Of a stretch of DNA of 64,000 nt, positions 13,928 to 39,430 are shown one piece after another (the first letter of the stretch is position 1; each line of letters begins with the position of its first letter). This stretch comes from Candidatus Poribacteria bacterium (GTDB lineage: Bacteria > Poribacteria > WGA-4E > WGA-3G). The translations under genes were made by a program, and so were the position numbers. The stretch is taken from NCBI GenBank assembly GCA_965215265.1, contig OZ244048.1, positions 4,032,001-4,096,000 of the forward strand. Reading direction: 5' to 3'. The notes under the pieces are model-generated. The model searched no databases and was not told where the DNA came from. It was given only the letters and a program-made list of their open reading frames with translations.

Positions 13928-13930
13928 ATT

Positions 13931-14171: not shown

Positions 14172-14202
14172 TTATGCTTTGAAGGTTCGTGTATCAATCT
14201 CG

Positions 14203-14453
14203 TTTTTTCGTATATCTCCGTACCGTCAACGTTTATGTCGTGAGTACTCGTGTGTAAATCTCGTCGGAGATTCCTTAGGTTATGTCTTTAAAAATCTAAA
14301 CATCAGAACCCTCTGGCGAGATTTTCACGGGTTTTAGCATAGCCGCAGCCTTCATGGGGCTGCAGTAGACAAAAAAAACGGGATTTTCACGGGTTTTAGC
14401 ATAGCCGCAGCCTTCATGGGGCTGCAGTAGACAAAAAAGCTGCAGTAGACAAA
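14203..14453. repeat. 161-bp dyad element, family 1 copy A, with duplicated right arm
   Basis: GTATAT 14210; AAATCTCGTCGGAG 14256; TTTAAA centre; CTCTGGCGAGATTT ending 14324; GTAGAC ending 14370; right arm repeated with a 62-bp period plus an extra GCTGCAGTAGACAAA. Confidence 0.85.
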
Positions 14454-14470
14454 TACCGATTGGGAGGCTC

Positions 14471-15271
14471 ATGAGAATTCTATTTATCGGAGACATTGTC
14501 GGCAACCCAGGCAGGAACGCCACAATTGAATTTTTGAAAACACGTCGTCGCTCTTATGATTTTATAGTGGCAAACGGGGAAAATGCGGCTGGTGGAAAAG
14601 GCATTACCTTTGAAATCACAGATCAGCTATTGGCAGCGGGTGTTTCTGTGATTACGAGTGGGAACCACATCTGGGATAATAAGTCGGTTTTTGACTTCAT
14701 AGATACTACTCCGCAGTTAATCCGTCCGGCGAATTATCCGGTGGAAGTGCCGGGCCGTGGGTGGACCTTTGTTACGTTTCCACTAGCAAAACAAGACGGT
14801 GCTGAGTCGACATCCCCGGTGCTCGGTGTGATTAATCTCGCTGGGCAGATTTTCATGAATAGCTATACAAACCCTTTTCACGTTTTGGATGCCATCTTAG
14901 CGGAGGTCAAAGCGAAGACCCCTTACGTTATACTTGATTTTCACGCTGAAGCGACATCAGAGAAAATCGCCATGGGGTGGTATGCTGATGGCCGCGTCGG
15001 TGCGGTTATCGGGACACACACGCACGTTCAGACAGCGGACGCACGCATCTTACCGGGCGGTACTGCCTATATAACAGATGTTGGCATGACAGGACCGCAT
15101 GACTCAATTATCGGCACGAAGAAAGAACCTATACTCGAACGTTTCCTCACTTTGATGCCGACACGACACGTTGTTGCAAAAGACAACGTCAAACTCTGTG
15201 CTGTTAGCATTGAATTGGATGATGACACCGGTACGGCTCTCAACATTGAACCGCTACAGTACCAATTTTAA
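14471..15271 (+). CDS. ymdB: TIGR00282/YmdB family metallophosphoesterase
   Basis: IGDIVG, NGENAAGG, GNHIWD, DFHAEATSEK and GTHTHVQT motifs. Confidence 0.92.
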   Translation: MRILFIGDIVGNPGRNATIEFLKTRRRSYDFIVANGENAAGGKGITFEITDQLLAAGVSVITSGNHIWDNKSVFDFIDTTPQLIRPANYPVEVPGRGWTFVTFPLAKQDGAESTSPVLGVINLAGQIFMNSYTNPFHVLDAILAEVKAKTPYVILDFHAEATSEKIAMGWYADGRVGAVIGTHTHVQTADARILPGGTAYITDVGMTGPHDSIIGTKKEPILERFLTLMPTRHVVAKDNVKLCAVSIELDDDTGTALNIEPLQYQF

Positions 15272-15344
15272 CCTTCTTCCGTGTTGCTTCGGTTCCCTCC
15301 GGCTAAGCCAAGCGTATTTGAGAACCACAGCGAGGAAATAAGCC

Positions 15345-16616
15345 ATGCAATTTCAATTTGAATTTCAGAGAACAGTGCTGAGCGTTAGCCAAATCACAGA
15401 GACACTGAAGCATCTGATACAGCAACAACCAAATCTTCAAAATGTGTGGGTGCAAGGACAACTTTCAAACTACGTGCGTGCCGGATCGGGCCATATCTAT
15501 TTCACGTTGAAGGATGCCAAAAGTCAAATCCCGTGTGTCTTATTCCAGAATTACGCTTCCCGTCTACGGTTTGCTCCGCATGATGGCGATGAAGTGCTGG
15601 TTCAAGGGCAGGTAAACGTTTACCCGCCACAAGGCAAATATCAGATAAACGTCACAGCGGTTGAACCACGTGGGATTGGTGCGTTGCAGAGAGCCTTTGA
15701 AGCATTGAAACAGAAACTTGCAGACGAAGGCATTTTTGACGATAAACATAAAAAGCCTCTCCCCAAATTCCCCCAGAGAATCGGTGTTATTACTTCCGCA
15801 TCCGGTGCTGCAATTCAGGATATCCGGCATCAACTTGAAAAAAGGTATCCGTTAGCGGAACTCTGGCTCCATCCGACGCTGGTTCAAGGTGAACACGCCC
15901 CAGCACAGATTGCGGAAGCCGTTCAAAGTATGAATTTTTCTGCACAACGCTCAGAGCCCCCTATAGATGTTTTGATTGTCGCGCGCGGTGGCGGCTCACT
16001 TGAAGACCTCTGGGCATTTAACGAAGAGCGCGTTGCACGTGCTATTTTCGATTCTGCAATTCCGGTCGTATCAGCTGTTGGCCATGAAACAGATTACACG
16101 ATTGCCGATATGGTGGCAGACCATCGTGCACCGACACCTTCAGCGGCAATTGAGCATCTGGTGCCAGACAGGCTTGAACTTCTCGTAGACTTGGGCAGTC
16201 GGGAGCAACGGCTGCATCGAATAACGGAGTGGAAACGGCAGGCACTCAAAGCACAATTAGTGGAGCTCGAAAGACGGCTTTCTCCAATTCGACAAAAAGA
16301 TAAGATAAATGAGCTGTCGCAGACGGTGGATAACCTTGAATCGGCATGTAAAACGGCAGTAGCACGCAGCCTGGATGAGCATCAGCGCACACTTGCGAAT
16401 CTCGCGGAACGTTTGCATGCCCTCAGCCCCCTCGCCACTTTAAAGCGGGGATATAGCATTAGCCGAAAAGAGAACGGCGGAATTTTAACGCGGGTTGAGC
16501 AGGTTGACGTGGGGGAGTTGATTGAAATTGAGCTGTCACAAGGAAGGCTTTTATGTTCTGTTCAGCAACGTTTTTTCGGAGCAGATTTTCGTCTACAGGA
16601 GCCCAATACGGATTGA
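15345..16616 (+). CDS. xseA: Exodeoxyribonuclease VII large subunit
   Basis: SGHIYFTLKD, RGGGSLEDLWAFNEE, GHETD and APTPSAA motifs. Confidence 0.95.
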   Translation: MQFQFEFQRTVLSVSQITETLKHLIQQQPNLQNVWVQGQLSNYVRAGSGHIYFTLKDAKSQIPCVLFQNYASRLRFAPHDGDEVLVQGQVNVYPPQGKYQINVTAVEPRGIGALQRAFEALKQKLADEGIFDDKHKKPLPKFPQRIGVITSASGAAIQDIRHQLEKRYPLAELWLHPTLVQGEHAPAQIAEAVQSMNFSAQRSEPPIDVLIVARGGGSLEDLWAFNEERVARAIFDSAIPVVSAVGHETDYTIADMVADHRAPTPSAAIEHLVPDRLELLVDLGSREQRLHRITEWKRQALKAQLVELERRLSPIRQKDKINELSQTVDNLESACKTAVARSLDEHQRTLANLAERLHALSPLATLKRGYSISRKENGGILTRVEQVDVGELIEIELSQGRLLCSVQQRFFGADFRLQEPNTD

Positions 16617-16770
16617 TGTTTTGATAACCTTTGCATAAAACTCGTCAGAGCCTGCTTAGGTATCGTCTTTAAAGTCAAAACCTAAGGAATCTCCGAAGAG
16701 ATTTACACGGTAATAAACATAACATCAGGCGTTATCGGGCTTAAATATACAAAAAGAGGTATACGAAAAA
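16586..16770. repeat. 161-bp dyad element, family 1 copy B, plus an extra outer motif
   Basis: GTCTAC 16591, AAAACTCGTCAGAG, TTTAAA, CTCCGAAGAGATTT, ATATAC ending 16750; an additional GTATACGAAAAA at 16759-16770. Confidence 0.85.
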
Positions 16771-16986
16771 TTGAATTTTGAAATTAAACTTGATAAACTA
16801 AAACAAATCGTTGAAAAATTGGAAAGCGGCGATGAATTGACGCTTGACGAATCACTCGGCATGTTTGAAGAGGGCATCACCATGGCCCGTGATTGTAGAA
16901 ACATGCTGGAAGCTGCAGAATTACGGATACAGAATGTCCTAGAAACGGACAATGAGGAAGAAGTAGATGTTCTTAGAACAGATTGA
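16771..16986 (+). CDS. xseB: Exodeoxyribonuclease VII small subunit
   Basis: FE..L..L..IV..LE.G..LTLDESL..FEEG motif; lies between xseA and dxs; TTG start. Confidence 0.9.
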   Translation: MNFEIKLDKLKQIVEKLESGDELTLDESLGMFEEGITMARDCRNMLEAAELRIQNVLETDNEEEVDVLRTD

Positions 16987-18973
16987 CAGCCCTGCGTCAC
17001 TAAAAACGCTTGACATCCAAGAACTTAAGACGCTTGCAGAGGAGATGCGTGCGTATCTGTTAGCGGTACTTTCAGAACATCCGGGACATTTCGCGCCTAA
17101 CTTTGGTACGGTTGAGTTGGCCATCGCACTTCACACCGTTTTTGATACACCGCATGATAAAATTATCTGGGACATTGGGCACCAAGCATATCCACATAAA
17201 CTTCTCACCGGACGTAGGGACGCGTTTCCAACACTCCGCCAAACGGGCGGCATCAGTGGGTTCCTGAGTCGTGCAGAAAGTGAGTACGATGTGTTTGGTG
17301 CGGGGCATTCAAGTACCTCCATCGCAGCGGCCCTCGGCATCGCGACTGCACGGGATGTTACCAATGCTGATTACAAAGTTGTGGCTGTCATTGGTGATGG
17401 TGGATTAACCGGAGGCATGGCCTTTGAAGGGCTAAACGCTGCAGGTGCTCCCGATCTATTCAAACGTAAAAAGGATATAGTGGTTATCCTAAACGACAAT
17501 CAGATGTCTATTTCAAACACTGTGGGGGCCCTGGGGCATCACTTGAAAGCATACTTGGAAGCGTCGAAACATTTTCATAAACTGACAAGTTCGCCGAACT
17601 ATAATCTGCTGCGTGAAGGTGCCAAGGAGCTCATCAACCGGATTTCCCCAGAGGCAAAGGGACTCGCGAGTAGGGTTGAGGCGGCTTTGAAACTCGGAAC
17701 ACTATTTGAGGAGCTCGGATTTCGCTACTTCGGACCCTTAGACGGTAACGACTTAGAGGCATTAATCCCAGTGCTGACAGGTGTCCGGGAGTTGTCTGGA
17801 CCGCGCTTCATTCATCTCGTCACTGAAAAAGGCCGCGGCTATCCTCCTGCTGAGACAGATCCAGTCGGCTTCTATAGCGTCAGCGGTCCGTTCGATCTGG
17901 AAACAGGAAAGCCAACGTCGAAAAAATCGATCACGCCCACGTATACGCAGGTGTTCAGCAAAACTTTGATTGACTTGGCGAAACGAGACGCACGTATTGT
18001 CGGTGTCACGGCCGCCATGCCAGGCGGAACCGGGTTGGATAAGTTTCAGAAAGAATTTCCGAACCGATGCTTTGATATCGGCTTGGCTGAGCAATGTGCT
18101 GTCACGTTCGCTGCCGGACTCGCCACAGAGGGGTTGCGTCCTGTTGCTGCTATCTATTCTACCTTCCTACAACGTGCCTACGACCAGGTGCTCCACGATG
18201 TATGCATTCAGAATCTGCCTGTAATCTTCGCACTGGATCGGAGCGGACTTGTGGGTGCTGACGGTCCAACGCACCACGGCGTTTTTGATTTGGCATATCT
18301 TCGCTCTATGCCTAATATGGTAGTTATGGCACCCAAGGATGAGAACGAACTCCAGCATATGGTGAAAACCGCACTCGTTTACGAAGATGGCCCCATTGCC
18401 TTCCGTTATCCTCGTGGTAGTGGTGTTGGAGTCAAGATAGAGGAAAAACCGAAGGCACTTCCAATTGGTAAAAGCGAAATCGTCAGAAAGGGTGATGATC
18501 TGCTAATCGTTGCCCTCGGAAATCGGGTTTATCCAGCATTGGCTGCTGCACAAAAGCTGGAAGAAGGGGAGAGTTTCACGCAGAGTTTACGGGGAACAAA
18601 GGATGTAGAAAAACACAATGTCCGTTCCGATATATATCAAACGGCAGTACCACACAAAGTCTCCGCAGCGGTTATCAATGCACGTTTTGTCAAACCCTTG
18701 GATATTGAGTTGATTCTTCCGTTGGCTGAGCGTATTGGCAACGTCATTACGGTTGAGGATGGGGTGTTGATGGGAGGATTCGGCAGTGCAGTTTTAGAAG
18801 CACTTGCAGCCGCAGGTATGACAGATATACACGTGAAGACACTCGGCATTCCTGATCGATTCGTTGAGCACGGTGATATTCAGCAGCTTTACGCGATGTA
18901 CGGGTGTGATGAAACCGCTATCCTCCGCGCCGCTGCGGATTTTTTCGTTTTTTCGTCTACAGGAGCCCAATGA
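16967..18973 (+). CDS. dxs: 1-deoxy-D-xylulose-5-phosphate synthase
   Basis: WDIGHQAYPHK, GHSSTSI, GDGGLTGGMAFE, YSTFLQRAYDQ and GADGPTHHG motifs. Confidence 0.96.
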   Translation: MFLEQIDSPASLKTLDIQELKTLAEEMRAYLLAVLSEHPGHFAPNFGTVELAIALHTVFDTPHDKIIWDIGHQAYPHKLLTGRRDAFPTLRQTGGISGFLSRAESEYDVFGAGHSSTSIAAALGIATARDVTNADYKVVAVIGDGGLTGGMAFEGLNAAGAPDLFKRKKDIVVILNDNQMSISNTVGALGHHLKAYLEASKHFHKLTSSPNYNLLREGAKELINRISPEAKGLASRVEAALKLGTLFEELGFRYFGPLDGNDLEALIPVLTGVRELSGPRFIHLVTEKGRGYPPAETDPVGFYSVSGPFDLETGKPTSKKSITPTYTQVFSKTLIDLAKRDARIVGVTAAMPGGTGLDKFQKEFPNRCFDIGLAEQCAVTFAAGLATEGLRPVAAIYSTFLQRAYDQVLHDVCIQNLPVIFALDRSGLVGADGPTHHGVFDLAYLRSMPNMVVMAPKDENELQHMVKTALVYEDGPIAFRYPRGSGVGVKIEEKPKALPIGKSEIVRKGDDLLIVALGNRVYPALAAAQKLEEGESFTQSLRGTKDVEKHNVRSDIYQTAVPHKVSAAVINARFVKPLDIELILPLAERIGNVITVEDGVLMGGFGSAVLEALAAAGMTDIHVKTLGIPDRFVEHGDIQQLYAMYGCDETAILRAAADFFVFSSTGAQ

Positions 18974-19121
18974 CGCTCTATGTTTTGTAAAAACCTGTGG
19001 AAATCTCGTCTGAGCCGTCTGGTGTTTTGACTTTAAAGACATTACCTAAGTGCGTCTCCTACGAGAGTTACATCGGATTTAACACGACATAACCTTTGAT
19101 GGTACGGAGAGATACAAAAAA
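18948..19121. repeat. 161-bp dyad element, family 1 copy C
   Basis: GTCTAC 18955; AAATCTCGTCTGAG 19001; TTTAAA; CTCCTACGAGAGTT; AGATAC ending 19115. Confidence 0.85.
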
Positions 19122-20116
19122 TCAAAAAAAAACGGATAGACCTATTGCTGGTAGAGCGAAAGTTTGCAGAAAGCCGGGAGCAAGCAAAACGTCTCGTCTT
19201 GGCTGGGGCTGTAAGTATTAATGGGAGCTCGCAGCTGAAACCGGGACAGCAAGTTTCTAATGATGTCGAGATTGTTGTGCAGCAACCCCAAAAATATGTG
19301 AGTCGGGGAGGCATCAAACTTGAAAAGGCACTAAACCACTTTGAGATAGAGGTGAAAAACCGTGTCCTGCTTGACGTGGGTGCCTCGACAGGAGGGTTCA
19401 CGGATTGCTTACTGCAGCACGGCGCAGAGTTTGTTTACGCCGTGGATGTCGGGTATGGGCAGCTCGCGTGGAAACTTTGCACTGATGCACGCGTGCAAGC
19501 CGTTGATAAGACTAACATCCGGTACATCAACCCAGAGATTTTTACACGTCCGTTGTCTATGGCTGTTATTGATGTCTCGTTTATTTCTCTGCGAACCGTC
19601 TTGCCTGTTGTTGTCCAGCTCCTTAAGGACAATGCTGCCAAATTTCCGGTGAACTGTCCTGATATCGACGTGATTGCCCTCATTAAACCCCAATTTGAAG
19701 CTGGACGCATCCATGTTAAAAAAGGGGGCATTGTTCCGGAGAAATCGGTGCATATTGAGACAATAGAGAACCTTATCGCATTCGTTGAAGGGGCTCCAGT
19801 ATACGAAAAACCTGCCATCTATAGATCGGAGCCCTTCGATGTATTGAATCATAACATCAAGAGGCTCAGACGAGATTCACACACGAGTTATGATTACCTA
19901 GACGTTGAAGGGGCTCCAGTATACGAAAAACCTGCCACTACTGTGATGGGACTTACGTATTCGCCTATCCACCAAGGTATCGGAAATCTTGAGTACCTAC
20001 TTTGGCTCAAGGTTTTTTGTCAAGGGCTCAAACACGTTTCTATTGAAAGGCAAAAAGGTCTGCCTGTCAAAGAAATTGTGGAGAACGCACATCACTGTTT
20101 TTATCGAGGTTCGTAA
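19121..20116 (+). CDS. tlyA: TlyA family rRNA 2'-O-methyltransferase/hemolysin, with an internal repeat-derived insertion
   Basis: KKRIDLLLVER, YVSRGGIKL, DVGASTGGFTD, DVSFISL and LIKPQFEAG; start uncertain (ATC 19121 versus TTG 19145). Confidence 0.9.
   Translation: MKKKRIDLLLVERKFAESREQAKRLVLAGAVSINGSSQLKPGQQVSNDVEIVVQQPQKYVSRGGIKLEKALNHFEIEVKNRVLLDVGASTGGFTDCLLQHGAEFVYAVDVGYGQLAWKLCTDARVQAVDKTNIRYINPEIFTRPLSMAVIDVSFISLRTVLPVVVQLLKDNAAKFPVNCPDIDVIALIKPQFEAGRIHVKKGGIVPEKSVHIETIENLIAFVEGAPVYEKPAIYRSEPFDVLNHNIKRLRRDSHTSYDYLDVEGAPVYEKPATTVMGLTYSPIHQGIGNLEYLLWLKVFCQGLKHVSIERQKGLPVKEIVENAHHCFYRGS
19783..19937. repeat. Family 1 right-arm fragment bounded by a 35-bp direct repeat, in-frame in tlyA
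   Basis: CGTTGAAGGGGCTCCAGTATACGAAAAACCTGCCA at 19783 and 19903 (period 120); inner motif CTCAGACGAGATTC ends 46 bp before the end of GTATAC (19924). Confidence 0.85.
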
Positions 20117-20121
20117 AGACT

Positions 20122-23100
20122 ATGTGGACGTTAATCAAACGTGTCGGGAAAAACAGAAAGTGGCTTTTGAGCACGTTGTTACTTATTAGTCTCGCTTGTA
20201 CGTTAGCATTTTACATCCGGTCTGTCGCTTTTCTGGATTGGATAGGCGAGCATGTTGAAAAGGAGATTCAAGAGCAGATAACTTCTGAATACATTGTGCA
20301 TCTCGGCAAAATTCAAGGGAATATTTTGCGAGGTGTTCACATTGAAGGCATCCGGGTTGTCACAGCAGAAGAACAGAGTGACGTGATTTCCACCGGTGAG
20401 ATTGTCCTAAAGTACAATCTGCTTGCCCTCTTACGGCGGAAATTTGTTGTTACTGCCTTAGAGGTTTCTGAACCGTGGATTCATGCCGTCGTGTCTGAAA
20501 ACGGAACGTTCAATCTAACGCAAATTTTTCGCCCGCGTTCTCCAGAAACTGACTCACAATTCAGATTTGCAGTAAAACAGGTTCACTGTCAGGGTGGAGT
20601 CATCCGTTTTGCCATGATTAAGCAGAACCTTGAGATTGCAATTGAAGGGGTGTCTCTTGAACTGAAAGGTCCGCTAAACGAATGGCATCATACCGGAAAA
20701 TTTGCGATTAAGACCGGCTCCCTTCGCATTGGGCGAAGTTCGCACGTAACTCAGACAAAACTACCCGGAGAACTGACAACAACTATAGAACGTTTCAAGG
20801 CAGACTTTCTGCTCTCTACTAGTGGCAATCAGCTAAAGGAGCTCTTCCTTAAATTCGGCAATTCGGCTTTGAAAATTAGAGGTGAGTCCAATCCGAAAAT
20901 GTGGAGCAGTGAGATAACATTGCTGTTAGATTTGAAACAGCATCAGCATCTTATTACACACGTGCTCCGTCAAACTGAAGTGAAATCCTTACTTCAAGGG
21001 ATGGCTGTTGTTAGACTGAGCGTGCAAGAGACCGATGCTACTTTGGGCGGCACGTTGAGAATAAACATGTCGCCCGTGACGTTGCGACATCCTAAACGAG
21101 AAGAGACAGTAAATATAACGGACGTGGATGTTGATGCAGATTTCGCACTGCATCCGGTGCCGAGATTGACGTTAAGTACCTTCCGTATACGAGGCGCGGG
21201 CGGTAGTTTGGCTGGAAAAGCGCGGCTCACCGTTCAACCCGCTGTGCAAGCCGCGGAAAACAGCGACGAGAACCCAGAAACGGAACTGTTGGCTCGCCTC
21301 CAACGTCTTGCCAAACGCCCTATCATCTACGAGGGAGAGTGGCACGCGACGAAAATTCACCTTGAGTCACTTTTCCCGATACTACCAGAGTGGATACGAG
21401 ATATCTTTGATGTTGACACAACCTCGGCGAACCTATTGACAAGCGGAGCTTTTAGCGGGAGCTACCCAGGCTTCAACAAGAGAGCACCAGACATCAAAAA
21501 TCGGCATCCCGTGAAAACCCTCCGGCTCCACAGCAAGTTCCAACTTACAAATACTGTCTTAAACGATGTCCCCGTTGCCAATTCAACCTTCAACTGCACT
21601 ATTGAAGATTTAAAAGGTGCTGGCGCTGTGGTTGATGTTATAGGCAATCTGGATGCAGAGACCGGGCTCAGCCTCAAGGGACCGCTCGTACCAACGCCCG
21701 GAAAACCCTTACAACTCCAGCTGACTTCTATTGATATGAGCAAGGTCATGCGTGTTTTCAACTCGGCGGACCTCGGGGGAAAAGCGGTGCTCACTGCGAA
21801 CATTTCTCATGACAAAACCACAACCGGTTCTATTGAAATACCGGACGCAACCTTCATGAACATCCCCCTCGGCGTTTTGGGAGGCGGTTTTCGTTATAGA
21901 ACCGGACAGGTATTCATTGAAAATGGTTTCCTCAATAAGGGGGAGAGTCGCCTCTCAATTGTCGGCACTGTTGATGTTGCCGGAGAATTGCCAGCGAATT
22001 TTCGGGTAGTCGGGGCACCTTCCGTGCAAGTTGCGGATTATAAATTACTTTTATTCGGAACGGATTATCCTATTGAGGGGGTGGTTACCGGTGAACTGCA
22101 TTTGGACGGTTCATTGACACATCTGAACGGCAGAGGCAACTTTCATGTGAACGCGGGTGAGGCGTGGGGTATCCACCTAGATGCACTAACGCTTCCGTTG
22201 GAAATTGAGAATTACGGCATTAGAATTCCTGATTTCAAGATTTCTGCGCGCGGCGAAGAAGTTATTTTTAACTTTGATATGCAACCAGACGGCAGCTTTG
22301 AGCTCGCGATAAAAAACCGAGAGGGGGTTCCTATCCGATTAACCGAAATTGCAAAAGCAGCAGATATTTCTGACTTTCCCATAGGCGCAAAGATGGATGT
22401 CGACTTCGTGGGAACACAGCGCGTCAACGAGGCGCTTGATTTTCGAGTTGGCCTCAATTTTTCAGACATCACATTTGAAAATAACCCCCTTGGTGATGCT
22501 TATCTGCTTGGTAGACTTGTAGAAGATGGAAACCGAGCTACCCTTTTATCTCCAGCTGGCGATGAAGATAAAAAGGGAGGTTTCTTCCGTTTTGATGGAT
22601 ACGGGTTTGGAGCGGCGAGTCAAATACAAGGCGAAATTAGCACTGAGGGTGACAGTCCATACCATTTCGTAGTCGTCAGCGAAGCCATGCCAGTTTCGCC
22701 TATTTTGCGTATCTTTAATCAGGAACTTCAGGCAGTTACAGGTACAGCCGATAGTACCGTTCACATCCGCGGCAACCTTACCGAACTGAGCCCGGATGCA
22801 TCTGGTTCCAAACAGGTCTTTCCGTACAATCTGGATATTACGGTGGAACCTACATTACTACACTATCAGGGCGTTGCATTTGAAAATGAAAAACCGATTC
22901 ACTTGGAATTGGTAGATGACGTTTGGACGATTAAGGCGTTCGCACTCACAGCGGAAAAAGCCCCGTTTATTGAAGTCGCCGGCACATTTCTGGCTGGAAG
23001 TGGAGCAATAGATGTACGCGCTGCCTCAACAGGGCTCGCGCTAGATGCTATCGGAAAAATGTTCCCCACCCACCCAAGTCCAATCAGTGGTATTGCACAG

Positions 23101-26949: not shown

Positions 26950-26950
26950 G

Positions 26951-30244: not shown

Positions 30245-30251
30245 TTTTCCC

Positions 30252-30421
30252 TTTTTCGTATATTTCAGTCCCATCAACGTCTATATTTTGATAACTCGTG
30301 TATAAATCTCGTCTGAGCCGTTCGATGTTTTGATTTTTAAAGACTATACCTAAGTCATCTCCGACGAATAAGAAGTTCTCCCTGCGAGTGGCAGGGACAA
30401 TTCTTAACGGAGATATACAAA
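30252..30421. repeat. 161-bp dyad element, family 1 copy D, between convergent genes
   Basis: GTATAT 30258; AAATCTCGTCTGAG 30304; TTTAAA; CTCCGACGA; ATATAC ending 30418; the right arm contains a family 3 hairpin. Confidence 0.85.
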
Positions 30422-31348
30422 TTAATCGGCGGAAAACGGTTTCCCTAATGCAAGGGGGGCCTCTGCTCGTCCGACGCATCCAGCTAAGACGGCTAAGCAC
30501 AAGACATAAGGGAGCATCAACAACAATTGGTACGGGATGTTCCAGCCCAATGCCTGAATACGGACATCCAGAGCACTGCCAAGTCCAAAAAGCAACGCTG
30601 CACCACACGCTTTGACAGGGTGCCACTTTCCAAAAATGACGATTGCCAATGCGATAAACCCGCGTCCGACCGTCATGCCGGGGGTAAAATATGGAACATC
30701 TGCCAACGAAAGATAGCCGCCTGCCATACCTGCTATCGTGCCTGCAAATAGGAGGCACCACGTTCGTAATCGAACGACGTTTCCCCCCACCGCTGAAACT
30801 GCCTTTGGATGCTCACCGCATGCCCGAATCAGGAGCCCTGCACGCGTATGGTAGAGAAACAGATACACGCACGGCACTAGTAAGAACGTTATAAATACCA
30901 GAACGTTGTGTGTAAAGAGTGCCTCCCCGACAAAAGGGATTCGCCAGAGCAGTGGAATCTTGACGGTTTTGAACGCAGCAACCCGAAGTGCACTCCCCGT
31001 TACGCCAAAAAGCCTTTGATAGATGACTTCTGTCAATCCTAATGCTAACAGCGTCATCGCTGTTCCCACGATGACTTGATCTCCGCGGAGCCTGAGCGCA
31101 ACGAGTGCAAAAACTGCTGCTGTAACAAAGCCGCTTGAGCCTGCGACGAGAAGCCCTATCCACGGGGCGAGGAGGCCTAATTCTGCACTGTAGAACGAAC
31201 CGACCATGCCGAAAAACGCCCCGATGAGCATCATGCCTTCAATACCGATGTTAATCACGCCTGCTCGCTGCGAGATGACTTCGCCTAACGCTGCGAGTAG
31301 GAGGGGTGTTGCGCCTCGAATTGTTGCGGAAATAATATCTTCAAACAT
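30422..31348 (-). CDS. Nucleoside/sugar ABC transporter permease (NupC/YufQ-like)
   Basis: ATPLLLAALGE, GVINIGIEGMM, RACGEHP and GRGFIALA motifs. Confidence 0.9.
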   Translation of the reverse strand: MFEDIISATIRGATPLLLAALGEVISQRAGVINIGIEGMMLIGAFFGMVGSFYSAELGLLAPWIGLLVAGSSGFVTAAVFALVALRLRGDQVIVGTAMTLLALGLTEVIYQRLFGVTGSALRVAAFKTVKIPLLWRIPFVGEALFTHNVLVFITFLLVPCVYLFLYHTRAGLLIRACGEHPKAVSAVGGNVVRLRTWCLLFAGTIAGMAGGYLSLADVPYFTPGMTVGRGFIALAIVIFGKWHPVKACGAALLFGLGSALDVRIQALGWNIPYQLLLMLPYVLCLAVLAGCVGRAEAPLALGKPFSAD

Positions 31349-31717
31349 TTTTATATATCTCCGTACCATCAAAGGTTATGTTGTGTCAACTCCGATGTAA
31401 ATCTCGTCGGAGGTTAACTAGGTATAGTCTTTAAAATCTAAACATAAACGGCTCAGGCGAGATTTGTGCTAAGGTGTTCATTACATCTGTTGTGTTGTGC
31501 GCCTGTATACGAAAATGGCTCAGGCGAGATTTGTGCTAAGGTGTTCATTACATCTGTTGTGTTGTGCGCCTGTATACGAAAATGGCTCAGGCGAGATTTG
31601 TGCTAAGGTGTTCATTACATCTGTTGTGTTGTGCGCCTGTATACGAAAACGGCTCAGGCGAGATTTTCACAGTCATTGACAATACATCAGGCGTTATCGG
31701 GCTTAAATATACAAAAA
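31348..31717. repeat. Family 1 copy E with a tandem array of right arms (3 x 67 bp plus a fourth, different arm)
   Basis: 67-bp units start at 31450, 31517 and 31584; the fourth unit at 31651 has a different interior. Confidence 0.9.
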
Positions 31718-32817
31718 TTTGACCAAAAATCCATTTTGATGGAACTATAGCCGATGACGTATAGAAGGAGTGTTGCCTGCATGACGAACGTGACTTTGTC
31801 AGAGATGCCGACGCTCCTCTGCATCGCATAGGAACCGGTGGTCAGTGTTCCAAACAAGAGTGCTGAGCCAATTGTGACAAGTGGATGCAATTTGGCGAGG
31901 AGAGCAACTGCAATAGCGGTGTACCCGTAGCCGGGCGAGAAATTCAGAAACAGGCGGCGTGTTAGTGCCATTAATTCAATCGCGCCTCCGAGTCCAGCCA
32001 ACAAGCCGCTGATGAAAAAGACGCGAAGTGTATTCTGAAAAATAGAAATCCCAGCGGCTTCTGCCGCCGGTGGCCCGTCGCCGACTGCACGCAGTTGATA
32101 CCCGTATGTCGTCCGGAATAAGACAAACGTCAGCCCTATTGCCAGTATCACTGCGATGACAATTCCGAGATGGATGCGGTGCGGTGGAAAGAGCCGGGGG
32201 AGAAACATCCATTCTGGTAACCGGTCACTCTGCGGTCCACGGTGCATCGCTTCTTGTAATGGTCCGCCATCTATCATCATGTTAACTAAATAGATTGCGA
32301 CGTAATTTAACATGATTGTGCTAATGACTTCATTGACACCTCGCGTAGTCTTAAGGATTGCCGGTAAGAGTCCCCATATTCCTCCTGCGAGTGCCCCGAA
32401 TGCTAAACCGAGTGGAACCGCCAGCCACGGTGTCGTCGGCAATAGAACAGAGAGCTTTGTCCCGAACCAGGTCGTTGCCAATGCGCCCATTAACAACTGA
32501 CCTTCTGCACCGATATTCCAGATGCCACACCTGAACGCGAGGACAACAGAGAGCCCTGTCATCAGAAACGGCGTACTTTTCACGAACGTTTCGCCCAATT
32601 TCCGGCTGTTTCCGAAGGCCCCTGCGCCGGCGGCAGCGTATGCGTCTAACGGATTGTAACCACATAGCAACATAATGATGGCGTTTGTAAAAAATGCGCT
32701 TGCCAGAATCATCACCGGAACAGCTGCGTATTTCAAAAATTTAAGTTCGGCAAACGTTAAGAATTGTCCCCGCAAGCGGGGTGAATTCTTATTTCTCACA
32801 TGATTCAGATTAGTCAT
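31687..32817 (-). CDS. Nucleoside/sugar ABC transporter permease (NupB/YufP-like)
   Basis: NIGAEGQ, VNEVISTIMLNY, GYQLRAVG and GYGYTAIAVALL motifs. Confidence 0.9.
   Translation of the reverse strand: MTNLNHVRNKNSPRLRGQFLTFAELKFLKYAAVPVMILASAFFTNAIIMLLCGYNPLDAYAAAGAGAFGNSRKLGETFVKSTPFLMTGLSVVLAFRCGIWNIGAEGQLLMGALATTWFGTKLSVLLPTTPWLAVPLGLAFGALAGGIWGLLPAILKTTRGVNEVISTIMLNYVAIYLVNMMIDGGPLQEAMHRGPQSDRLPEWMFLPRLFPPHRIHLGIVIAVILAIGLTFVLFRTTYGYQLRAVGDGPPAAEAAGISIFQNTLRVFFISGLLAGLGGAIELMALTRRLFLNFSPGYGYTAIAVALLAKLHPLVTIGSALLFGTLTTGSYAMQRSVGISDKVTFVMQATLLLYVIGYSSIKMDFWSNFCIFKPDNA
32759..32790. repeat. Family 3 palindrome in the N-terminal coding region of the ABC permease
   Basis: AAGAATTGTCCCCGCAAGCGGGGTGAATTCTT; flanks match the reverse complement of 30367-30409. 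Confidence 0.75.
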
Positions 32818-34369: not shown

Positions 34370-34401
34370 TGAAATCGCGCTTCGCAGTTTATCCGGACAA
34401 A

Positions 34402-35298: not shown

Positions 35299-35601
35299 AA
35301 TTTTCTCGTTCCGTAACAGGTCTGATAAGGCACATCGTAAACGTAGATTTATTTTGGCAGCTCACCCGACTCGTTGGCGAATTTTCGTGGTTCTCTAGCT
35401 CAGAGAATATATTGATTGTACACAACTAGACACTCTTTTGTAGTTTACCATAGAAGTCTCATTTTTTGTTAGCAAAAAATTGGGTTTTCATATATAATAC
35501 AAACGGTCTTCATTCATATATGCGAAGAAATTTTCTGTGTTTTGTTCTGAAATGCCGTTTGATTAGCGTGAAGATTGAATGAAAAGAAAAAGGAATTTAT
35601 T

Positions 35602-36372
35602 ATGCAAAGAAGACGCGCTAGAGCGCGATACTGTAAAGGGGAGTTAATTGAACGCGAAGACTTCTCTGAAGATTTAGCAGCGTTCAAATTTCGTACGGAG
35701 AAAGCACTTCCGTTTATTCCGGGGCAATACGCAACTATCGGTTTTGAAATTGGGGAAAAGATTGTCCAGCGTCCCTACTCTATTGTCTCTTCCCCCCATG
35801 AGCCGTTCATGGAAGTTTTTGTGGAATTGGTACCGGAAGGCGAAACTACCCCGCTCTTTTGGGAACTGAAACTTGGGGACTACGTTTTTTTCCGGGAACG
35901 TCTCGTCGGGAAGTTTATATTGGATACACAGAGCGGCTTGACTCGGCATCTGATGGCAGGAACGGTTACGGGGGCGGCCCCATACATTAGTATTGCACGT
36001 ACGCAAAAAATCGAGCAAGAACGCGGGGAACCGAGTCCACATCAGATTTTGTCAATTGTCGGGGCGAGCCGTTCATGGGAACTTGGATACTACTTGGATG
36101 AACTCAACGAACTCGCTGCACAAGAAGAGTGGTTCACCTTTATTCCTACGGTGAGCCGTCCCTGGGAAGATCCCGAATGGCAAGGTGAAAGTGGGCGCGC
36201 TGAAGATGTGATTCGTAAATATGGGGACGCGCACGGCTTCGACCGGACGAGCGCTGTTGTTTATGCTTGTGGGCACCCACAAATGATTGAGAATGCTAAA
36301 GCAATCTGGGCACGGGCACGTTTTCCGGAAGAACAGATTAAAGAGGAAAAATTCTTTGTGATTAAACAGTAG
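35602..36372 (+). CDS. fpr: Ferredoxin--NADP(+) reductase
   Basis: FIPGQY, RPYSIVS, TVSRP, YACGHPQMI and EEKF motifs. Confidence 0.85.
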   Translation: MQRRRARARYCKGELIEREDFSEDLAAFKFRTEKALPFIPGQYATIGFEIGEKIVQRPYSIVSSPHEPFMEVFVELVPEGETTPLFWELKLGDYVFFRERLVGKFILDTQSGLTRHLMAGTVTGAAPYISIARTQKIEQERGEPSPHQILSIVGASRSWELGYYLDELNELAAQEEWFTFIPTVSRPWEDPEWQGESGRAEDVIRKYGDAHGFDRTSAVVYACGHPQMIENAKAIWARARFPEEQIKEEKFFVIKQ

Positions 36373-36437
36373 CTTTCCGTTTCAATATCGACTGCGCTGC
36401 TGCGCCTTGATATCTACCCAATTCGTAATCATCTCGT

Positions 36438-36496
36438 AAATCTCGTCGGAGTGATTCCAGTGTCCTTCCCGCATCGCTATTCCTCCGACGAGATTT
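36438..36496. repeat. Family 1 core-only variant (perfect 14-bp inverted repeat)
   Basis: AAATCTCGTCGGAG ... CTCCGACGAGATTT around an unrelated 31-bp interior. Confidence 0.75.
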
Positions 36497-36525
36497 TTTG
36501 TTTTTATTGCTGGATATGAATAAAG

Positions 36526-37098
36526 ATGAATTCTTCAAAACAAAGGAAAAATAAAAACATCCGCTGGCGGGTTATTTGGCTTGGGCTCGGTCTCATCCCG
36601 TTCAACAATTATTGGGTTTTCGCATCGCTTCGTTGGGACCAAGGCTTCCCGACGACGATGTCCCTCTTTTTTAATTCTATCTTCGCGTTGTGCGTGTTAA
36701 TAACGCTTAATGCCGTGTTTCGCAAATTTTCGCCAGAGGCTGCGCTAACGCAAGGTGAATTACTCACGCTCTATGCGATGCTGTCGATAGCATCGGCTAT
36801 CTGTGGACACGACCTGTTTGAAGTTATCATCACCAACATTGCCACGGTCGGCTGGCTGGCGACTGAAGAGAATGAGTGGGCGACGCTTTTCCATCGATAT
36901 ATCCCGCACTGGCTCGCGCTCACTGATAAAAACCACTTAACTGTCTATTTTACAGGTGAGTCTAGTCTTTATCTCAAGCCGCATCTTGAATTGTGGGGGC
37001 ACCCCGTGCTGGCATGGAGCGGGTTTATCATTGTGCTGCTTTTCACGACGTTTTGCATCTTTGATTCACGCGCCAAACATCGTCCCAATCAAAGCTAA
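36526..37098 (+). pseudogene. Truncated DUF6785-like membrane protein (N-terminal ~190 aa)
   Basis: Aligns by eye with 2063-3979 (FNNYW, SLFFN, ENEW, PVLAWS) but stops before the RKQW motif. Confidence 0.75.
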
Positions 37099-37104
37099 CT
37101 TCTA

Positions 37105-37142
37105 GTAGGGCAATTCATTGTCTGAGGCATAATTCATGCCTA
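37105..37142. repeat. Degenerate GTAG-type REP-like palindromes
   Basis: GTAGGGCAATTCATTGTCT followed by AGGCATAATTCATGCCT. Confidence 0.45.
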
Positions 37143-38414
37143 TGGAGGAGACAGCGGTTCAGCAGTCTCTTTTGTGAGTTTACCGCGGGGAAAAGGAAGC
37201 AGTGGGACGATGTCTTCTGGCAGCTTAGTGCCCGGTTTCGGCTTAAATTTGGCAGCGAGTTCTGGTTCGAGTTCTATCGCTTTTGCATAGTCTTCTATGG
37301 CATCCTCAGTTTTACCTTTTTCGAAGTAAGCAACGCCACGATTGTAATAGGCTTCAGCGAGTTCTGGTTCGAGTTCTATCGCTTTGGTATGGTCTTCGAT
37401 GGCACGATCCAACTCGCCTTTTTCTCTATAAATCGCGCCGCGGTTGCTATAAGCCTCGGCGAGTTCTGGTTCAAGTTCTATCGCTTTTGCATAGTCTTTG
37501 ATGGCGTGATCCAACTCGCCTTTTTCTTTATAAGTCGCGCCGCGGTTGCTATAAGCCTCGGCGAGTTCTGGTTCGAGTTCTATCGCAGCGTTAAAGTCTT
37601 CGATGGCGCGATCCAACTCGCCTTTTTTGCTGTAAGTATTACCGCGATTGTTATATGCATCGGCATAATCCGGTTGAAGTTCTATCGCTTTTGTATAGTC
37701 TTCAATCGCCCGTTCAATCTCGGACATTTTTGCATAAGCGGCACCGCGATTGCAATAAACGCCGGCAAGATCCGGCCTGAGGCGTATCGCCTCATTATGG
37801 TCCTTAATAGCGAAATTTAGCAGTCCTGCTGTCACATAAGCCCTGCCACGATTGCTATACGCCTGGGCAAAGGTTGAGCGAAATTCTATCGCTTTTGTAT
37901 AGTCTTCAATCGCCCGTTCAACATCGCCTTTATCGTCGTGGTAGGCAGCGCCGCGATTGTTATATGCATCGGCATAATCATATTTCAGTTTTATCGCCTC
38001 GTCATAGTCTTCAATGGCGCGGTTGATTTCGGATTTGCGGTGATACGTTAAACCGCGATAGAAATATGCGTGTGCAAAATCAGGTTTGAGTTTTATTGCG
38101 TGTTCCAAGTCTTTAAGGGCACGCTCAAATTCTCCCTTTTTGCTATAAGCCATGCCGCGGTTATTATACGCATACGCGTTGGTTGGCTCGAGTTTTATCG
38201 CTTCGTTATAGTCAGAGATAGCAACATCCACTTGCCCCTTGGCGTAGTGAGCGAACCCGCGGTTTTTGTAGGCTCTGGCAAAATCTGGCTTGAGTTCAAT
38301 AGCCACGTTATAATCCTCAATGGCTTCATCGTACTTGTTCACAGTTAACCGAAAATTTGCGCTTTGAAAATAGTTGTAGGAGCGCTTGTCTGTGTCAGAC
38401 TGCTTATTTTTCAT
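37140..38414 (-). CDS. Tetratricopeptide repeat protein (~11 TPRs)
   Basis: Repeated AY.NRG...AI.D..KAIEL.P; GGAGG SD before ATG 38414; 102-bp DNA periodicity. Confidence 0.92.
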   Translation of the reverse strand: MKNKQSDTDKRSYNYFQSANFRLTVNKYDEAIEDYNVAIELKPDFARAYKNRGFAHYAKGQVDVAISDYNEAIKLEPTNAYAYNNRGMAYSKKGEFERALKDLEHAIKLKPDFAHAYFYRGLTYHRKSEINRAIEDYDEAIKLKYDYADAYNNRGAAYHDDKGDVERAIEDYTKAIEFRSTFAQAYSNRGRAYVTAGLLNFAIKDHNEAIRLRPDLAGVYCNRGAAYAKMSEIERAIEDYTKAIELQPDYADAYNNRGNTYSKKGELDRAIEDFNAAIELEPELAEAYSNRGATYKEKGELDHAIKDYAKAIELEPELAEAYSNRGAIYREKGELDRAIEDHTKAIELEPELAEAYYNRGVAYFEKGKTEDAIEDYAKAIELEPELAAKFKPKPGTKLPEDIVPLLPFPRGKLTKETAEPLSPP

Positions 38415-39264
38415 CGTGGTGCTCCTCCATAGTCCGGTAAGGCAAGAGTCGATCGTAGGGATGTGCATGCGTGTTTCTCTGAAAAAAAGCCAACAGATCG
38501 GCAAAGAGTGTTTTCTCAGAGATTCCGATTTTTGCTAATGTCGTTCTCAAACTTTCTTTGCAGCCACTAGGGATTACGAATTCTCCTGCAAACATCCCTG
38601 CATCTACTTCAAGCCCGCCAAATAGAAATACTGATTGCTGCATCATCATACGTTGGATGTCTACTGTCCGACTATCTAAAGTGGGTTTCCAGAGATACCA
38701 CTGTTTTTCATCGGACTGTTCTTTATCGATAGAAAAAAAATCATCTAGCTCCTGTTGAAGTCTGTTTTTCGTAGTTATTTCTTCAATTTTTTTACTATCC
38801 TTCTCTAACATAATAATCTTGCCGTCTGTATTCTTACTACCATCACAAGCAAACCAAAGGGCAACAAGGGGACTGAATGTAAAATCGATCAATGCTGTCG
38901 CAACTCCGTTGTGCTGCAAATGTGCCATACACTCTAACTGCGACAGGTCTCTGTAGGTAGAGGGGTACCGTAGTTGAATCTCGTCAACAATCTGTTTCAA
39001 GTAGCCGACAAACAAGTCAACTAACGCACCTAGTTCCGCCTCGGTTTGCCCTTCTGATAACGAACTGTGTTCAGAGTCGGTTTGCGTTTCCAATAAACCG
39101 GAGGCAGTACCGGTTTGCCTTACCAAGCGGCGATAAGCACTACTGGTCACTTGCCACGCTTCATCTTCCTGACCGCGATAGAGATAGCTTTTTTCCGGAT
39201 TGGTGATTTCATCTATTCGGTGGATGTAGTCCGTCAAGTTAGATATTTTAATCGGTGAATTCAT
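38404..39264 (-). CDS. FRG domain protein
   Basis: YRGQ, LQHNGVATALIDFT.SPLVALWFA, R..QQSVF and GISEKTLF.DL motifs. Confidence 0.88.
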   Translation of the reverse strand: MNSPIKISNLTDYIHRIDEITNPEKSYLYRGQEDEAWQVTSSAYRRLVRQTGTASGLLETQTDSEHSSLSEGQTEAELGALVDLFVGYLKQIVDEIQLRYPSTYRDLSQLECMAHLQHNGVATALIDFTFSPLVALWFACDGSKNTDGKIIMLEKDSKKIEEITTKNRLQQELDDFFSIDKEQSDEKQWYLWKPTLDSRTVDIQRMMMQQSVFLFGGLEVDAGMFAGEFVIPSGCKESLRTTLAKIGISEKTLFADLLAFFQRNTHAHPYDRLLPYRTMEEHHDEK

Positions 39265-39310
39265 GCAGTGCTGCTTCTGTTGCTATACTTCTCCAACCAA
39301 TCATTGTTAA

Positions 39311-39339
39311 ATTATATAACTTACCAGTAAATTTGTCAA
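39311..39339 (-). promoter_or_regulatory. Consensus sigma70 promoter for the FRG-TPR pair
   Basis: TTGACA (39339-39334), 17 bp, TATAAT (39316-39311). Confidence 0.75.
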
Positions 39340-39430
39340 TTTTTTTGTATATTTCAGCCCCATCAACGCTTAGGTATTGACAGCTCGTGTGAAAATCTCG
39401 TCTGAGCCGTTCGATGTTTCGTCTCTAAAT
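39340..39430. repeat. Family 1 half element (copy G)
   Basis: GTATAT 39347; AAATCTCGTCTGAG 39393 (offset 46); CCGTTCGATGTTT as in copy D; ends near the centre. Confidence 0.8.

Follow-up and report, generated by a model that had tools for sequence, protein, structure and literature searches.

An intergenic repeat family of modular, heterotypic arms with fixed motif spacing in a Poribacteria genome

The genome of a sponge-symbiont-type bacterium of the Candidatus Poribacteria harbors hundreds of intergenic copies of a small modular repeat: a profile search of the 4.83-Mb genome recovered 814 arms at 395 loci, spanning 60.6 kb, i.e., 1.25% of the genome and 7.7% of the space outside open reading frames (ORFs). 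With a probability of about 60%, the family represents a lineage-amplified, non-autonomous, MITE/BIME-like mosaic of intergenic modules, which is read by a protein and secondarily serves as a gene leader. The small mobile DNA of these uncultivated bacteria has hardly been described in print; a full-text literature search on intergenic or miniature inverted-repeat elements of Poribacteria returned nothing.

The basic module is an arm of ~60 nt bearing an outer motif (a T-run followed by YGTMTAY) and an inner motif, AAATCTCG(YCNGAG). In the window, i.e., the whole 64-kb stretch of DNA analysed, AAATCTCGYCNGAG was matched 16 times with at most one mismatch vs 0.14 matches expected (none of 100 shuffles reached 16), and TTTTYGTMTAY was matched 16 times vs 0.34 expected. 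The five dyads and four partial copies recognized by an earlier reading of the DNA letters (hereafter, the sequence-only reading) were all found at their positions (Table 1), and the 46-bp offset between the outer and inner motifs proposed there turned out to be conserved genome-wide. Counted from TTYGT, this offset becomes 50 (the figure of 46 was counted from G); it is exact in 306 of the 400 arms with both motifs intact and amounts to 49–51 in 383 of them, despite the fact that random arm pairs are only ~62% identical. The idea of a fixed ~161-bp geometry held for the strict motif spacing but not for the length: the inner-to-inner gaps cluster at 35, 43–44, and 50–51 nt, and the 161-bp dyad is merely the largest of these three length classes. 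Only 15% of the arm bases fall into our own crude ORF calls, vs 86% of the genome, and the copies are clumped along the chromosome.

Table 1. Copies and fragments of the repeat in the window (positions are those of the window).
Feature	Position	Strand	Details
Isolated outer-end fragment (TTTTTTCGTCTAC...), 29 nt	14044..14072	+	family D9; outer motif match at 14046
Stub of an outer-truncated arm, running up to dyad A and ending in CAATCTCG	14171..14203	+	by eye
Dyad A left arm, class I (outer end ...CTCCGTACC)	14204..14292	+	nhmmer E 2.5e-19, profile positions 2-89
Dyad A right arm, class II	14288..14376	-	nhmmer E 6.8e-18
Dyad A extra head-to-tail unit, 61 nt, 98% identical to neighbour	14378..14438	-	nhmmer; family D4
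Dyad B left arm, class II, containing the end of the xseA reading frame	16585..16673	+	nhmmer
Dyad B right arm, cluster 17	16668..16756	-	nhmmer
Dyad C left arm, class II, containing the end of the dxs reading frame	18949..19037	+	nhmmer
Dyad C right arm, class I, pointing at tlyA-type gene (S4 + FtsJ domains)	19032..19121	-	
35-nt duplicate of next arm's outer end	19783..19817	-	family D7, 100% identical to 19903-19937
Half-dyad (solo arm), class I	19846..19930	-	nhmmer E 7.4e-16
Element D left arm, class I type	30252..30340	+	nhmmer E 1.9e-18
Element D right half: degenerate inner motif, foreign hairpin (GTTCTCCCTGCGAGTGGCAGGGAC), class-I outer end	30341..30418	-	
Dyad E left arm, class I	31347..31435	+	nhmmer
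Dyad E, four head-to-tail right arms	31430..31718	-	nhmmer; family D5
Mini-dyad reduced to its core: a pair of inverted inner motifs separated by 31 nt, no outer arms	36438..36496	.	
Half-dyad, class I	39341..39429	+	nhmmer

Along with the dyads, the family comprises solo arms (half-dyads), which end at the central TTTAAA, and head-to-tail arrays of 61–62-nt units; repeat finding in the window recovered the half-element families D3, D4, D5, D6, and D9. Copies reside inside densely packed housekeeping operons, such as xseA–xseB, dxs–tlyA, and a permease pair. Thus, the right arm of dyad B is followed by a 14-nt outer-end duplicate and then by the xseB start at 16771, and the outer end of the left arm of dyad E (GGAGATATATAAAA on the minus strand) abuts the ATG of a permease gene (31346–31348). 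The right side of E consists of three cluster 29 arms at a 67-nt period, then one cluster 17 arm. The half-dyad at the end of Table 1 points at the start of an FRG-domain gene (38404..39264, minus strand), 77 nt away. Element D is placed between convergent genes, and its right half is a class-I arm with the interior replaced by a foreign hairpin.

The arms fall into classes, that of class I having the outer end GGAGATATACAAAAA directly before a downstream ATG. The particular likenesses between arms on which the sequence-only reading was built are real: the left arm of E resembles the reverse complement of the right arm of C (65 nt, 89% complementary), the left arms of B and C are 72% alike (family D6), and the right arm of B shares an identical 34-nt outer stretch with the last E arm (family D4). 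What did not stand is the notion of freely exchangeable, shuffled arms, since like arms are never paired: same-cluster dyads among the four major clusters number 0 of 127, with ~18 expected by arithmetic from the cluster sizes. The apparent shuffling is mostly a matter of element orientation and of two arm classes pairing heterotypically. The same reading held that the two arms of a copy are not complementary in between, and at the variable positions the left and right arms indeed match at 48.2% (127 dyads) vs 55.6% in random arm pairs. The match between the two arms of a dyad is confined to the 11-nt outer motif (77%), the following 40 nt agreeing at 48%, vs 56% in random arm pairs. The absence of like-arm dyads might stem from an asymmetric master copy, or long perfect palindromes might not be tolerated and would then be avoided.

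The distribution of the 14-nt inner motif is uneven: 394 copies are present here, 5 in a congener (G001), 115 in a member of another genus (G004), and 0–4 in each of 148 further Poribacteria genomes covered by the search; a control with the reversed motif gave ~0. Across 185,579 species genomes, a single further record, from uncultured Poribacteria, contained the strict dyad pattern; a plasmid collection gave no related match, viral contigs gave none, and metagenome contigs gave a single match, unrelated in appearance and about at the chance level by our own estimate. The inner motif is kept across genera while the arm interiors are unrelated, which fits recognition by a protein. Orthologous arms in three species of genus g5 and in two species of genus g3 have the 14-nt motif intact amid diverged intergenic DNA. 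At sites B and E, arms with the intact motif are found in both congeners; since the genes of the two are only 74–80% identical, these copies are old, and the intact motif there would also fit a selected function. At site E, the corresponding ATG of the congener is likewise preceded by an arm, which is of the congener's own type.

The sequence-only reading suggested a protein-bound recombination or mobility substrate, or a nucleoid-organising site. The conservation of the motif is consistent with protein recognition, but the nucleoid part found no support. Static, non-mobile binding sites of a nucleoid or architectural protein, the likeness of the copies being due to constraint and gene conversion, would agree with two motifs ~50 bp apart at a fixed spacing close to five helical turns, with the conservation of the motif across genera, and with the old shared sites B and E. 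However, the copies are clumped and restricted to intergenic space, their number differs ~80-fold between two genomes of one genus (394 vs 5), empty and filled paralogous sites coexist in one genome, and near-identical copies occur at distant loci. Static architectural sites are, hence, considered highly improbable.

Several lines of evidence point to a gain of copies. A near-identical partner (at least 98% identity) exists elsewhere in the genome for 130 of 682 arms. Site A holds 545 nt of repeats, whereas the same two genes lie ~5 nt apart in the congener; at site D, the syntenic spacer of the congener is 75 nt long and the repeat is absent. In one clean paralogous empty site, a whole dyad turned out to be inserted between T and A of CCAT^AAATCC, without duplication. 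Other paralogues display independent insertions at different points, one half-dyad replacing 36 nt, and several apparent insertions replace native sequence instead of simply adding to it. The comparison with empty sites, put forward in the sequence-only reading as a check for target duplication, thus yielded one clean case with none; together with a matching terminal repeat of only ~11 nt and anti-correlated interiors, it bears out the departure from an ordinary MITE argued there. Insertion at terminator hairpins was rejected (12 of the 538 exposed outer ends abut a hairpin, vs 10 of 600 in the control). The contigs of four sequencing runs, taken from four studies, invariably end within the repeats, and apparent skips in read contigs join different copies; the family breaks short-read assemblies.

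The sequence-only reading saw no cognate enzyme in the window, and the genome-wide search of the scanned families and of arm-flanked genes found none either. Matches to PF07282 (TnpB zinc ribbon), PF01797 (Y1 TnpA; control positive in 6 of 14 genomes), and PF01548 (IS110) numbered zero each. No arm pairs flanking a transposase were found; the four longest of seven wide convergent pairs enclose housekeeping genes. In a Pfam scan of 5 of the 24 largest multi-copy protein families, the sole transposase-like match was Transposase_31 (Rpn/YhgA-like), with 19–24 copies here. It was rejected as the cognate enzyme: 116 of 151 Poribacteria genomes have this family, and genomes with 17 and 14 copies possess no motif copies. 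The genome has one reverse transcriptase, situated away from the arms, with an IGNLTSQ-type motif, a mark of diversity-generating retroelements. The gene behind the conserved g5 arm is presumably half of a CHAD-domain gene (by eye) and not a repeat enzyme.

The arms could also be relics or derivatives of a single-strand element (HUH, i.e., IS200/IS605-type, or rolling-circle), with the 61-nt unit as the mobile entity and the enzyme since lost here. Insertion 3' of a CTCG-like target would explain the lack of target duplication seen at the clean empty site as well as the head-to-tail arrays, built of precise 61-nt units ending in CTCG; furthermore, a CG(T) stub precedes ~40% of the 538 exposed outer ends genome-wide. 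By eye, however, the CG(T) signal is that of truncated neighbouring arms, CTCG is absent from the empty sites examined, and a conserved subterminal hairpin was not found in the arm alignment. TnpB is abundant in the relatives (108 copies in G001, 66 in G004), and at the xseA–xseB site of G001 a TnpB element sits beside two arms; yet the genome with the most arms has neither TnpB nor Y1 TnpA matches, and the one with the most TnpB copies has only five copies of the motif. The same counts led us to reject TnpB as the cognate enzyme, and such an origin appears quite improbable.

The sequence-only reading was silent on the orientation of the arms relative to genes, on the supply of ribosome-binding sites and start contexts, and on the 61-nt head-to-tail arrays. 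According to our own crude ORF map, on which all orientation counts rest, 109 of 169 solo arms point with both flanking genes and 27 against both; class I arms point at the downstream gene (sense) in 193 cases and are antisense in 54. Class II and other arms have no orientation bias (112:125). A replication-strand bias behind the orientation was rejected, the GC skew and gene-strand asymmetry being not clear. A long ORF starts within 30 nt of the outer end of 195 arms, and among the class I arms near the start of a long ORF (84 arms), the start codon is located exactly at +1 in 27; the 3' end of the host 16S rRNA has CCUCC. The arms thus appear to supply ribosome-binding sites to a sizeable set of genes, and therefore the family would shape gene expression.

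This raises the alternative of a functional 5' leader, i.e., a translation-initiation cassette operating at the RNA level and kept by selection, not by selfish spread, in which the conserved CUCNGACGAGAUUU of a sense arm and the Shine–Dalgarno-bearing outer end would cooperate, e.g., via anti-Shine–Dalgarno pairing or as a processing or standby site. Such a leader would accord with the ~4:1 orientation bias of solo and class I arms, the +1 start codons, the occurrence of arms ahead of start codons also in G004, G001, and genus g5, and the motif kept in orthologous arms (g5, g3, sites B and E). It would also suit the complementarity, noticed by eye, between the CUCCG of the inner motif and the CGGAG carried by class I outer ends. 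Still, no covarying helix was found within the arms, as there are no stacked complementary column pairs among 661 distinct arms, and variation of the inner motif is not paralleled by that of the outer one. The arms outside class I (class II and others) are unbiased, some copies, such as element D, are placed between convergent genes, a leader leaves no room for head-to-tail arrays and antisense halves, the genes served are unrelated housekeeping genes, and the 80-fold copy difference between congeners is unlike a conserved regulon. Selection for a leader as the origin of the family is, therefore, deemed unlikely. Covariation had been proposed as a check by the sequence-only reading, and an Rfam match as grounds for abandoning it; at the gathering score, Rfam gave no match in the window, two chance-level matches (E up to 1) falling outside the arms. 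Folding is weakly better than in shuffles (z of -2.1 and -1.8), and the predicted hairpin is imperfect. A consensus scan for promoters and terminators stayed at the chance level: for the sigma-70-type promoter consensus, it found 7 sites over 13900–20200 vs 7.3 expected, none in the arms.

Overall, the mobile, protein-read repeat remains our preferred reading. Its dyads are built of heterotypic arms around a centre of 35, 43, or 50 nt. Conserved end motifs at a conserved spacing, combined with a free interior, make it most likely that a trans-acting, sequence-specific DNA-binding or recombination protein, encoded away from the copies, copies or maintains the family. New copies would arrive without target duplication, and old ones would decay by deletions from the centre into the flank. 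In surviving copies, the class I end would give a Shine–Dalgarno sequence and an A-rich spacer to the next gene, with orientation presumably under selection, and the other end of the element sometimes gives a stop codon to the preceding gene. A more specific version seems rather unlikely, namely that the arms are the substrate of a chromosomally encoded, undescribed recombination or copying system common to Poribacteria, which uses the 14-nt motif as its recognition site and could append 61-nt units one by one in head-to-tail order, or entire dyads, without target-site duplication. If true, this system would recognize a pair of short motifs spaced by about five helical turns, whatever the interior between them, and would constitute a new enzyme–repeat pairing comparable to that of RAYT with REP. 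Fixed motifs and spacing, unlike arms, no target duplication, and no transposase found make for a well-defined question: what copies these elements?

The family shares with generic MITEs its small size, non-coding nature, multiple copies, mainly intergenic location, and presence/absence differences (sites A and D vs the congener, and the paralogous sites); unlike in MITEs, a target-site duplication is absent at the one clean filled/empty pair. PATEs (palindrome-associated transposable elements derived from IS200/IS605) are likewise small, non-coding, and free of target duplication, none being seen at the clean empty site here, and the group studied here is TnpB-rich; however, TnpA and TnpB gave no match in this genome, the arms have no conserved subterminal hairpin, and a fixed target tetranucleotide is not apparent. 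Unlike the cassettes of a single integron attC array, the copies are scattered among housekeeping genes at 395 loci. BOX elements are modular, one module being tandemly repeated a variable number of times; compared by description, they differ in not being dyads with two strictly spaced motifs. In Streptococcus pneumoniae, according to passages of PMC10969869, BOX elements cluster with other small repeats that insert into one another.

Parallels are also offered by the Correia elements (CREE/NEMIS) of Neisseria, described in PMC2649163 and PMC10969869 as dyads of ~100–200 bp that occur between genes in hundreds of copies, in many cases immediately ahead of a gene with which they are co-transcribed, and that have end subtypes and effects on the expression of neighbours. 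Likened by description, the Poribacteria family has a similar dyad size, intergenic abundance, upstream position, and end subtypes. Correia elements duplicate a TA target, whereas no duplication is seen at the clean empty site here. They further have outward sigma-70-type promoters at their ends, an IHF site in the core, and paired ends cleaved by RNase III; in the Poribacteria family, the consensus scan gave no sigma-70-like promoter in the arms of the stretch covered, the arms of one element are systematically dissimilar, and both half-elements and head-to-tail arrays occur commonly. The REP units of enterobacteria and pseudomonads are short, G+C-rich palindromes associated with RAYT (Y1), while the Poribacteria arms have no family-wide hairpin and the genome has no Y1 match. 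BIMEs, i.e., REP clusters, consist of few unit types in a mosaic of alternating orientation with linkers of discrete lengths; their sequence is species-specific, they are intergenic within operons, and most copies lack an adjacent transposase. The mosaic of alternating units, the discrete linker lengths, the species-specific sequence, the copies mostly without a neighbouring transposase, and the intergenic position in operons are all shared by the Poribacteria family.

The sequence-only reading described a repeated dyad family in the window; this observation was confirmed and extended to the whole genome. Upon direct reading of the sequence, the claimed layout was present in the elements concerned: from the outside inward, a T-run with YGTMTAY (the outer motif) is followed by ~40 variable bases, AAATCTCGYCNGAG and a TTTAAA-bearing centre, and then by the mirror arrangement. 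In the window, the inner motif occurs 16 times (vs. 0.14 expected) and the outer motif 16 times (vs. 0.34 expected). A search with a half-element profile (nhmmer) returned 15 arms, i.e., ~60-nt modules running from the outer to the inner motif. They correspond to dyads A, B, C, and E, the left half of element D, two half-dyads (solo arms ending at the central TTTAAA), and five extra head-to-tail arms. Arm fragments and a core-only mini-dyad lacking the outer arms are present as well. The window copies are placed between housekeeping genes (see the table), and the xseA frame enters the left arm of B, and the dxs frame that of C, each terminating inside the arm.

Repeat elements and neighbouring features of the window (gene settings of A–E according to Pfam)
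Feature	Position in the window	Setting or remark
Dyad A	14210-14370	between phosphoribosyltransferase-like gene and ymdB
Dyad B	16591-16750	between xseA and xseB
Dyad C	18955-19115	between dxs and tlyA-type gene
Element D	30258-30418	after Omp85 gene
Dyad E	31353-31510	between two BPD_transp_2 permease genes
Half-dyad	19846-19930	
Half-dyad	39341-39429	
Mini-dyad	36438	core only
tlyA-type frame	19145-20116	continues through half-dyad
Stretch with DUF6785, TPR, and FRG-domain genes	36367-39572	bracketed by mini-dyad 36438 and half-dyad 39341
102-nt periodic repeats	37224-38277	TPR units of gene 37140..38504, minus strand; ordinary
Small hairpins, GAATTGTCCCCGCAAGCGGGGTGAATTC type	13932-13965, 27610-27641, 32759-32790, 30345-30400	
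30-nt inverted repeat with GGGTGGGTGGG	23865-23894 / 23993-24022	97% complementary; inside 2275-aa DUF748/TamB-like ORF
72-nt direct repeat	23438-23509 / 25167-25238	93% identical, 1.7 kb apart; same 2275-aa ORF

Several features of the window were recorded alongside the arms. The small hairpins look like a separate REP-like family; a hairpin of this type is also inserted within the right arm of element D, and similar ones adjoin arms in G004 (a genome of another genus of the same family) and a TnpB gene in the congener G001. The G-rich GGGTGGGTGGG string recurs as an insertion at the centre of several other dyads of the genome. The tlyA-type frame runs ~110 codons past the point where similarity to the congener ends (near 19789), and the stretch with the DUF6785, TPR, and FRG-domain genes is unmatched at the corresponding syntenic position in the congener.

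The source genome (one contig, 4,833,177 bases, 48.1% G+C) harbors 814 arms detected with an iterated half-arm profile of 89 positions and distributed almost evenly between the strands (410 and 404). They form 395 loci, including 169 solo arms and 84 simple dyads, the remainder possessing added head-to-tail arms (>><, ><<, >><<, etc.). The arms cover 60.6 kb, amounting to 1.25% of the genome and, by a crude in-house ORF calling that also underlies the other arm/gene counts, to 7.7% of the space outside ORF calls; the ORF calls contain 15% of the arm bases vs. 86% of the genome. Part of the window was found in 20 of 24 sequencing runs (13 studies), none of them recorded as RNA. Contigs from four runs (four studies) cover or end in the window's elements at unchanged positions, one spanning D entirely; no empty sites were seen in these contigs, which, being assembled from short reads, break within repeats.

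The geometry of the arms is strict. The outer-to-inner offset is identical in 306 of 400 arms and deviates by at most 1 nt in 383, and the head-to-tail period is 61 nt, most pairs falling at 60–62. Random arm pairs are ~62% identical over positions 1–61. The conserved positions comprise T1–4, G6, T7, T9, G16, C19, T32, G33, T37, AAATCTCG at 52–59, C61, GAG at 63–65, G75, G80, and T83; most of the remaining positions are bimodal and hence represent subfamily marks. The dyads are of several lengths, with inner-to-inner gaps peaking at 35, 43–44, and 50–51 nt and outer-to-outer distances peaking correspondingly.

The two arms of a dyad had been reported as non-complementary, which is correct and even understated, since they are less alike than random pairs and no dyad pairs two arms of the same cluster among the four major arm clusters. 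Within 127 dyads, the arms agree in 77% of the outer motif, 85% of the inner motif, 48% of the variable positions, and 53% of the centre vs. 81, 88, 56, and 56%, respectively, in random pairs. The free shuffling of arms suggested earlier did not hold: instead, two broad classes pair heterotypically, one with outer ends ...CTCCGTACC or ...TTCAGCCC and the other with ...CAGGAGCCC or ...TGCAGC. Still, the mosaicism is in part real, as outer types are found together with several variants of both the inner part and the centre. The likenesses noted across orientations do exist but represent the same arm class within oppositely directed elements.

Nothing in the arms points to a structured RNA. Across 661 distinct arms, no runs of stacked complementary columns were found, and covariation was limited to isolated column pairs, as subfamily linkage predicts. 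A search of Rfam yielded no match at the gathering score and, at E up to 1, two chance-level matches, both outside the arms. The predicted folds of dyad C (as RNA) and dyad B (as DNA) are long hairpins with bulges, which outdo shuffled sequences by only ~2 standard deviations, and a consensus scan for promoters and terminators remained at the chance level.

The arms are oriented with respect to genes. In the inner-to-outer direction, 109 of 169 solo arms run with both flanking genes and 27 against both; for one-way arrays, the figures are 36 and 10 of 55. Sense vs. antisense counts are 193:54 for class I arms, 53:15 for cluster 17 arms, and 112:125 for the remaining classes, and when a dyad separates two genes of like direction, its class I or cluster 17 arm is the downstream one 51 times and the upstream one 27 times. 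Neither the GC skew nor the strand asymmetry of genes is clear enough to cause this bias indirectly. A long-ORF start lies within 30 nt of 195 arms of all classes. The sense strand of class I terminates in GGTACGGAGATATACAAAAA, and where a long ORF starts nearby, the start codon is exactly at +1 in 27 of 84 class I arms and within a few bases in most others. The 16S rRNA ends in ...CACCUCCUUUCU, which makes the GGAG of the class I end a plausible Shine–Dalgarno sequence.

Flank searches revealed paralogous places with and without elements within the genome. Thus, the dyad at 817242-817412 is inserted between T and A of CCAT^AAATCC, with no target duplication in comparison with two empty paralogues. 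In a family of promoter-bearing paralogues (TTGACA-N17-TAAACT), some copies are empty and others hold a dyad or a partial element, the position of which differs between copies; some native bases have been lost. The half-dyad at 795086 stands in place of 36 nt present in four paralogues and ends exactly at the central ...TAAA. Overall, 130 of the 169 solo arms reach profile position 80 or beyond and are true half-dyads; such forms may arise by deletion from the centre outward, which would fit this extent.

Genome searches did not identify an enzyme for the arms. The TnpB zinc ribbon, Y1 TnpA, and IS110 transposase had no match in the source genome (controls were positive for each), nor did the TnpB of G001 in a tblastn search. 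The mobile-DNA contents of the close relatives are strikingly different: TnpB matches number 108 in G001, opposite to its arm number, 66 in G004, and 0 in the source genome. Between the arms of the four longest wide convergent pairs lie housekeeping genes (UvrD-type helicase, uvrA, two dnaN, and others; named by eye). Two multi-copy protein families were recorded, one of 25 members (e.g., 82823-83815) without a Pfam match in the first 200 residues and one of 23 members (e.g., 70807-71952), which is Transposase_31 (YhgA/Rpn-like) with GIEQ repeats. The latter is the sole transposase-like multi-copy family confirmed by Pfam (five representatives scanned); a link to the arms was rejected, since Poribacteria that lack an expansion of arms commonly have this family too. 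The sole reverse transcriptase of the genome (1419880-1420944, 354 aa) bears the motif IGNLTSQ, typical of diversity-generating retroelements.

The family is patchily distributed among relatives. BLAST with dyad A gave strong matches confined to the source genome and weak ones in 3 of 30 relatives. The inner motif CTCNGRCGAGATTT was counted 394 times in the source genome, 115 in G004, 5 in G001, and 0–4 in each of the other 148 Poribacteria genomes searched, the reversed-motif control being near zero. Among 185,579 species genomes, the strict dyad pattern occurred in one other record, the chromosome (MAG) of an uncultured Poribacteria bacterium; it was not found in viral contigs. The architecture in G004 is the same, with dyads, arms ending in ...CCGCAAGGAATGACGAAAG, and arms that directly adjoin an ATG or TTG. 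In other genera, the arms are ~8 nt longer (hand count on sequences). In one of them (g5), three species have an arm before the same gene, one of them carrying it in four copies, and two species of another genus (g3) have another arm site in common. The g5 gene behind the arm is, by eye, the latter half of a CHAD-domain gene; in a g5 record (1497..2596), an arm lies between two ORFs both resembling, by eye, halves of a CHAD-domain protein. The repeat may have split a gene there and supplied a new start to the second half.

Comparison with G001 (gene DNA identity 74–80%) gives an idea of the age of the sites. At site A, the genes are ~5 nt apart in G001 vs. 545 nt of repeats in the source genome, and at site D the G001 spacer is 75 nt and repeat-free. 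The 127-nt G001 spacer at site C retains two decayed arm starts, by eye. At site B, G001 has a head-to-tail pair of arms that belong to its own subtype and keep the inner motif intact, with a hairpin and then a TnpB gene behind them; at site E, one own-subtype arm with the 14-nt motif intact stands immediately before the same ATG. The presence of arms at the same sites in both congeners means that some sites are older than the split of the two species. At these old common sites, the interiors are unrelated while motifs and spacing are kept, which requires either selection acting on the motifs or ongoing homogenisation inside each genome.

Collectively, the arms make up an undescribed family whose general kind, that of non-autonomous mosaic repeats in intergenic DNA, is known. 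It is made unusual by its strictly spaced motifs, unlike arms, absence of target duplication, 61-nt arrays, lack of a transposase, and the frequency with which genes use it as a ribosome-binding leader. Among known repeats, BIMEs offer one comparison for the arm family. Another is provided by the Correia elements (PMC2649163, PMC10969869).
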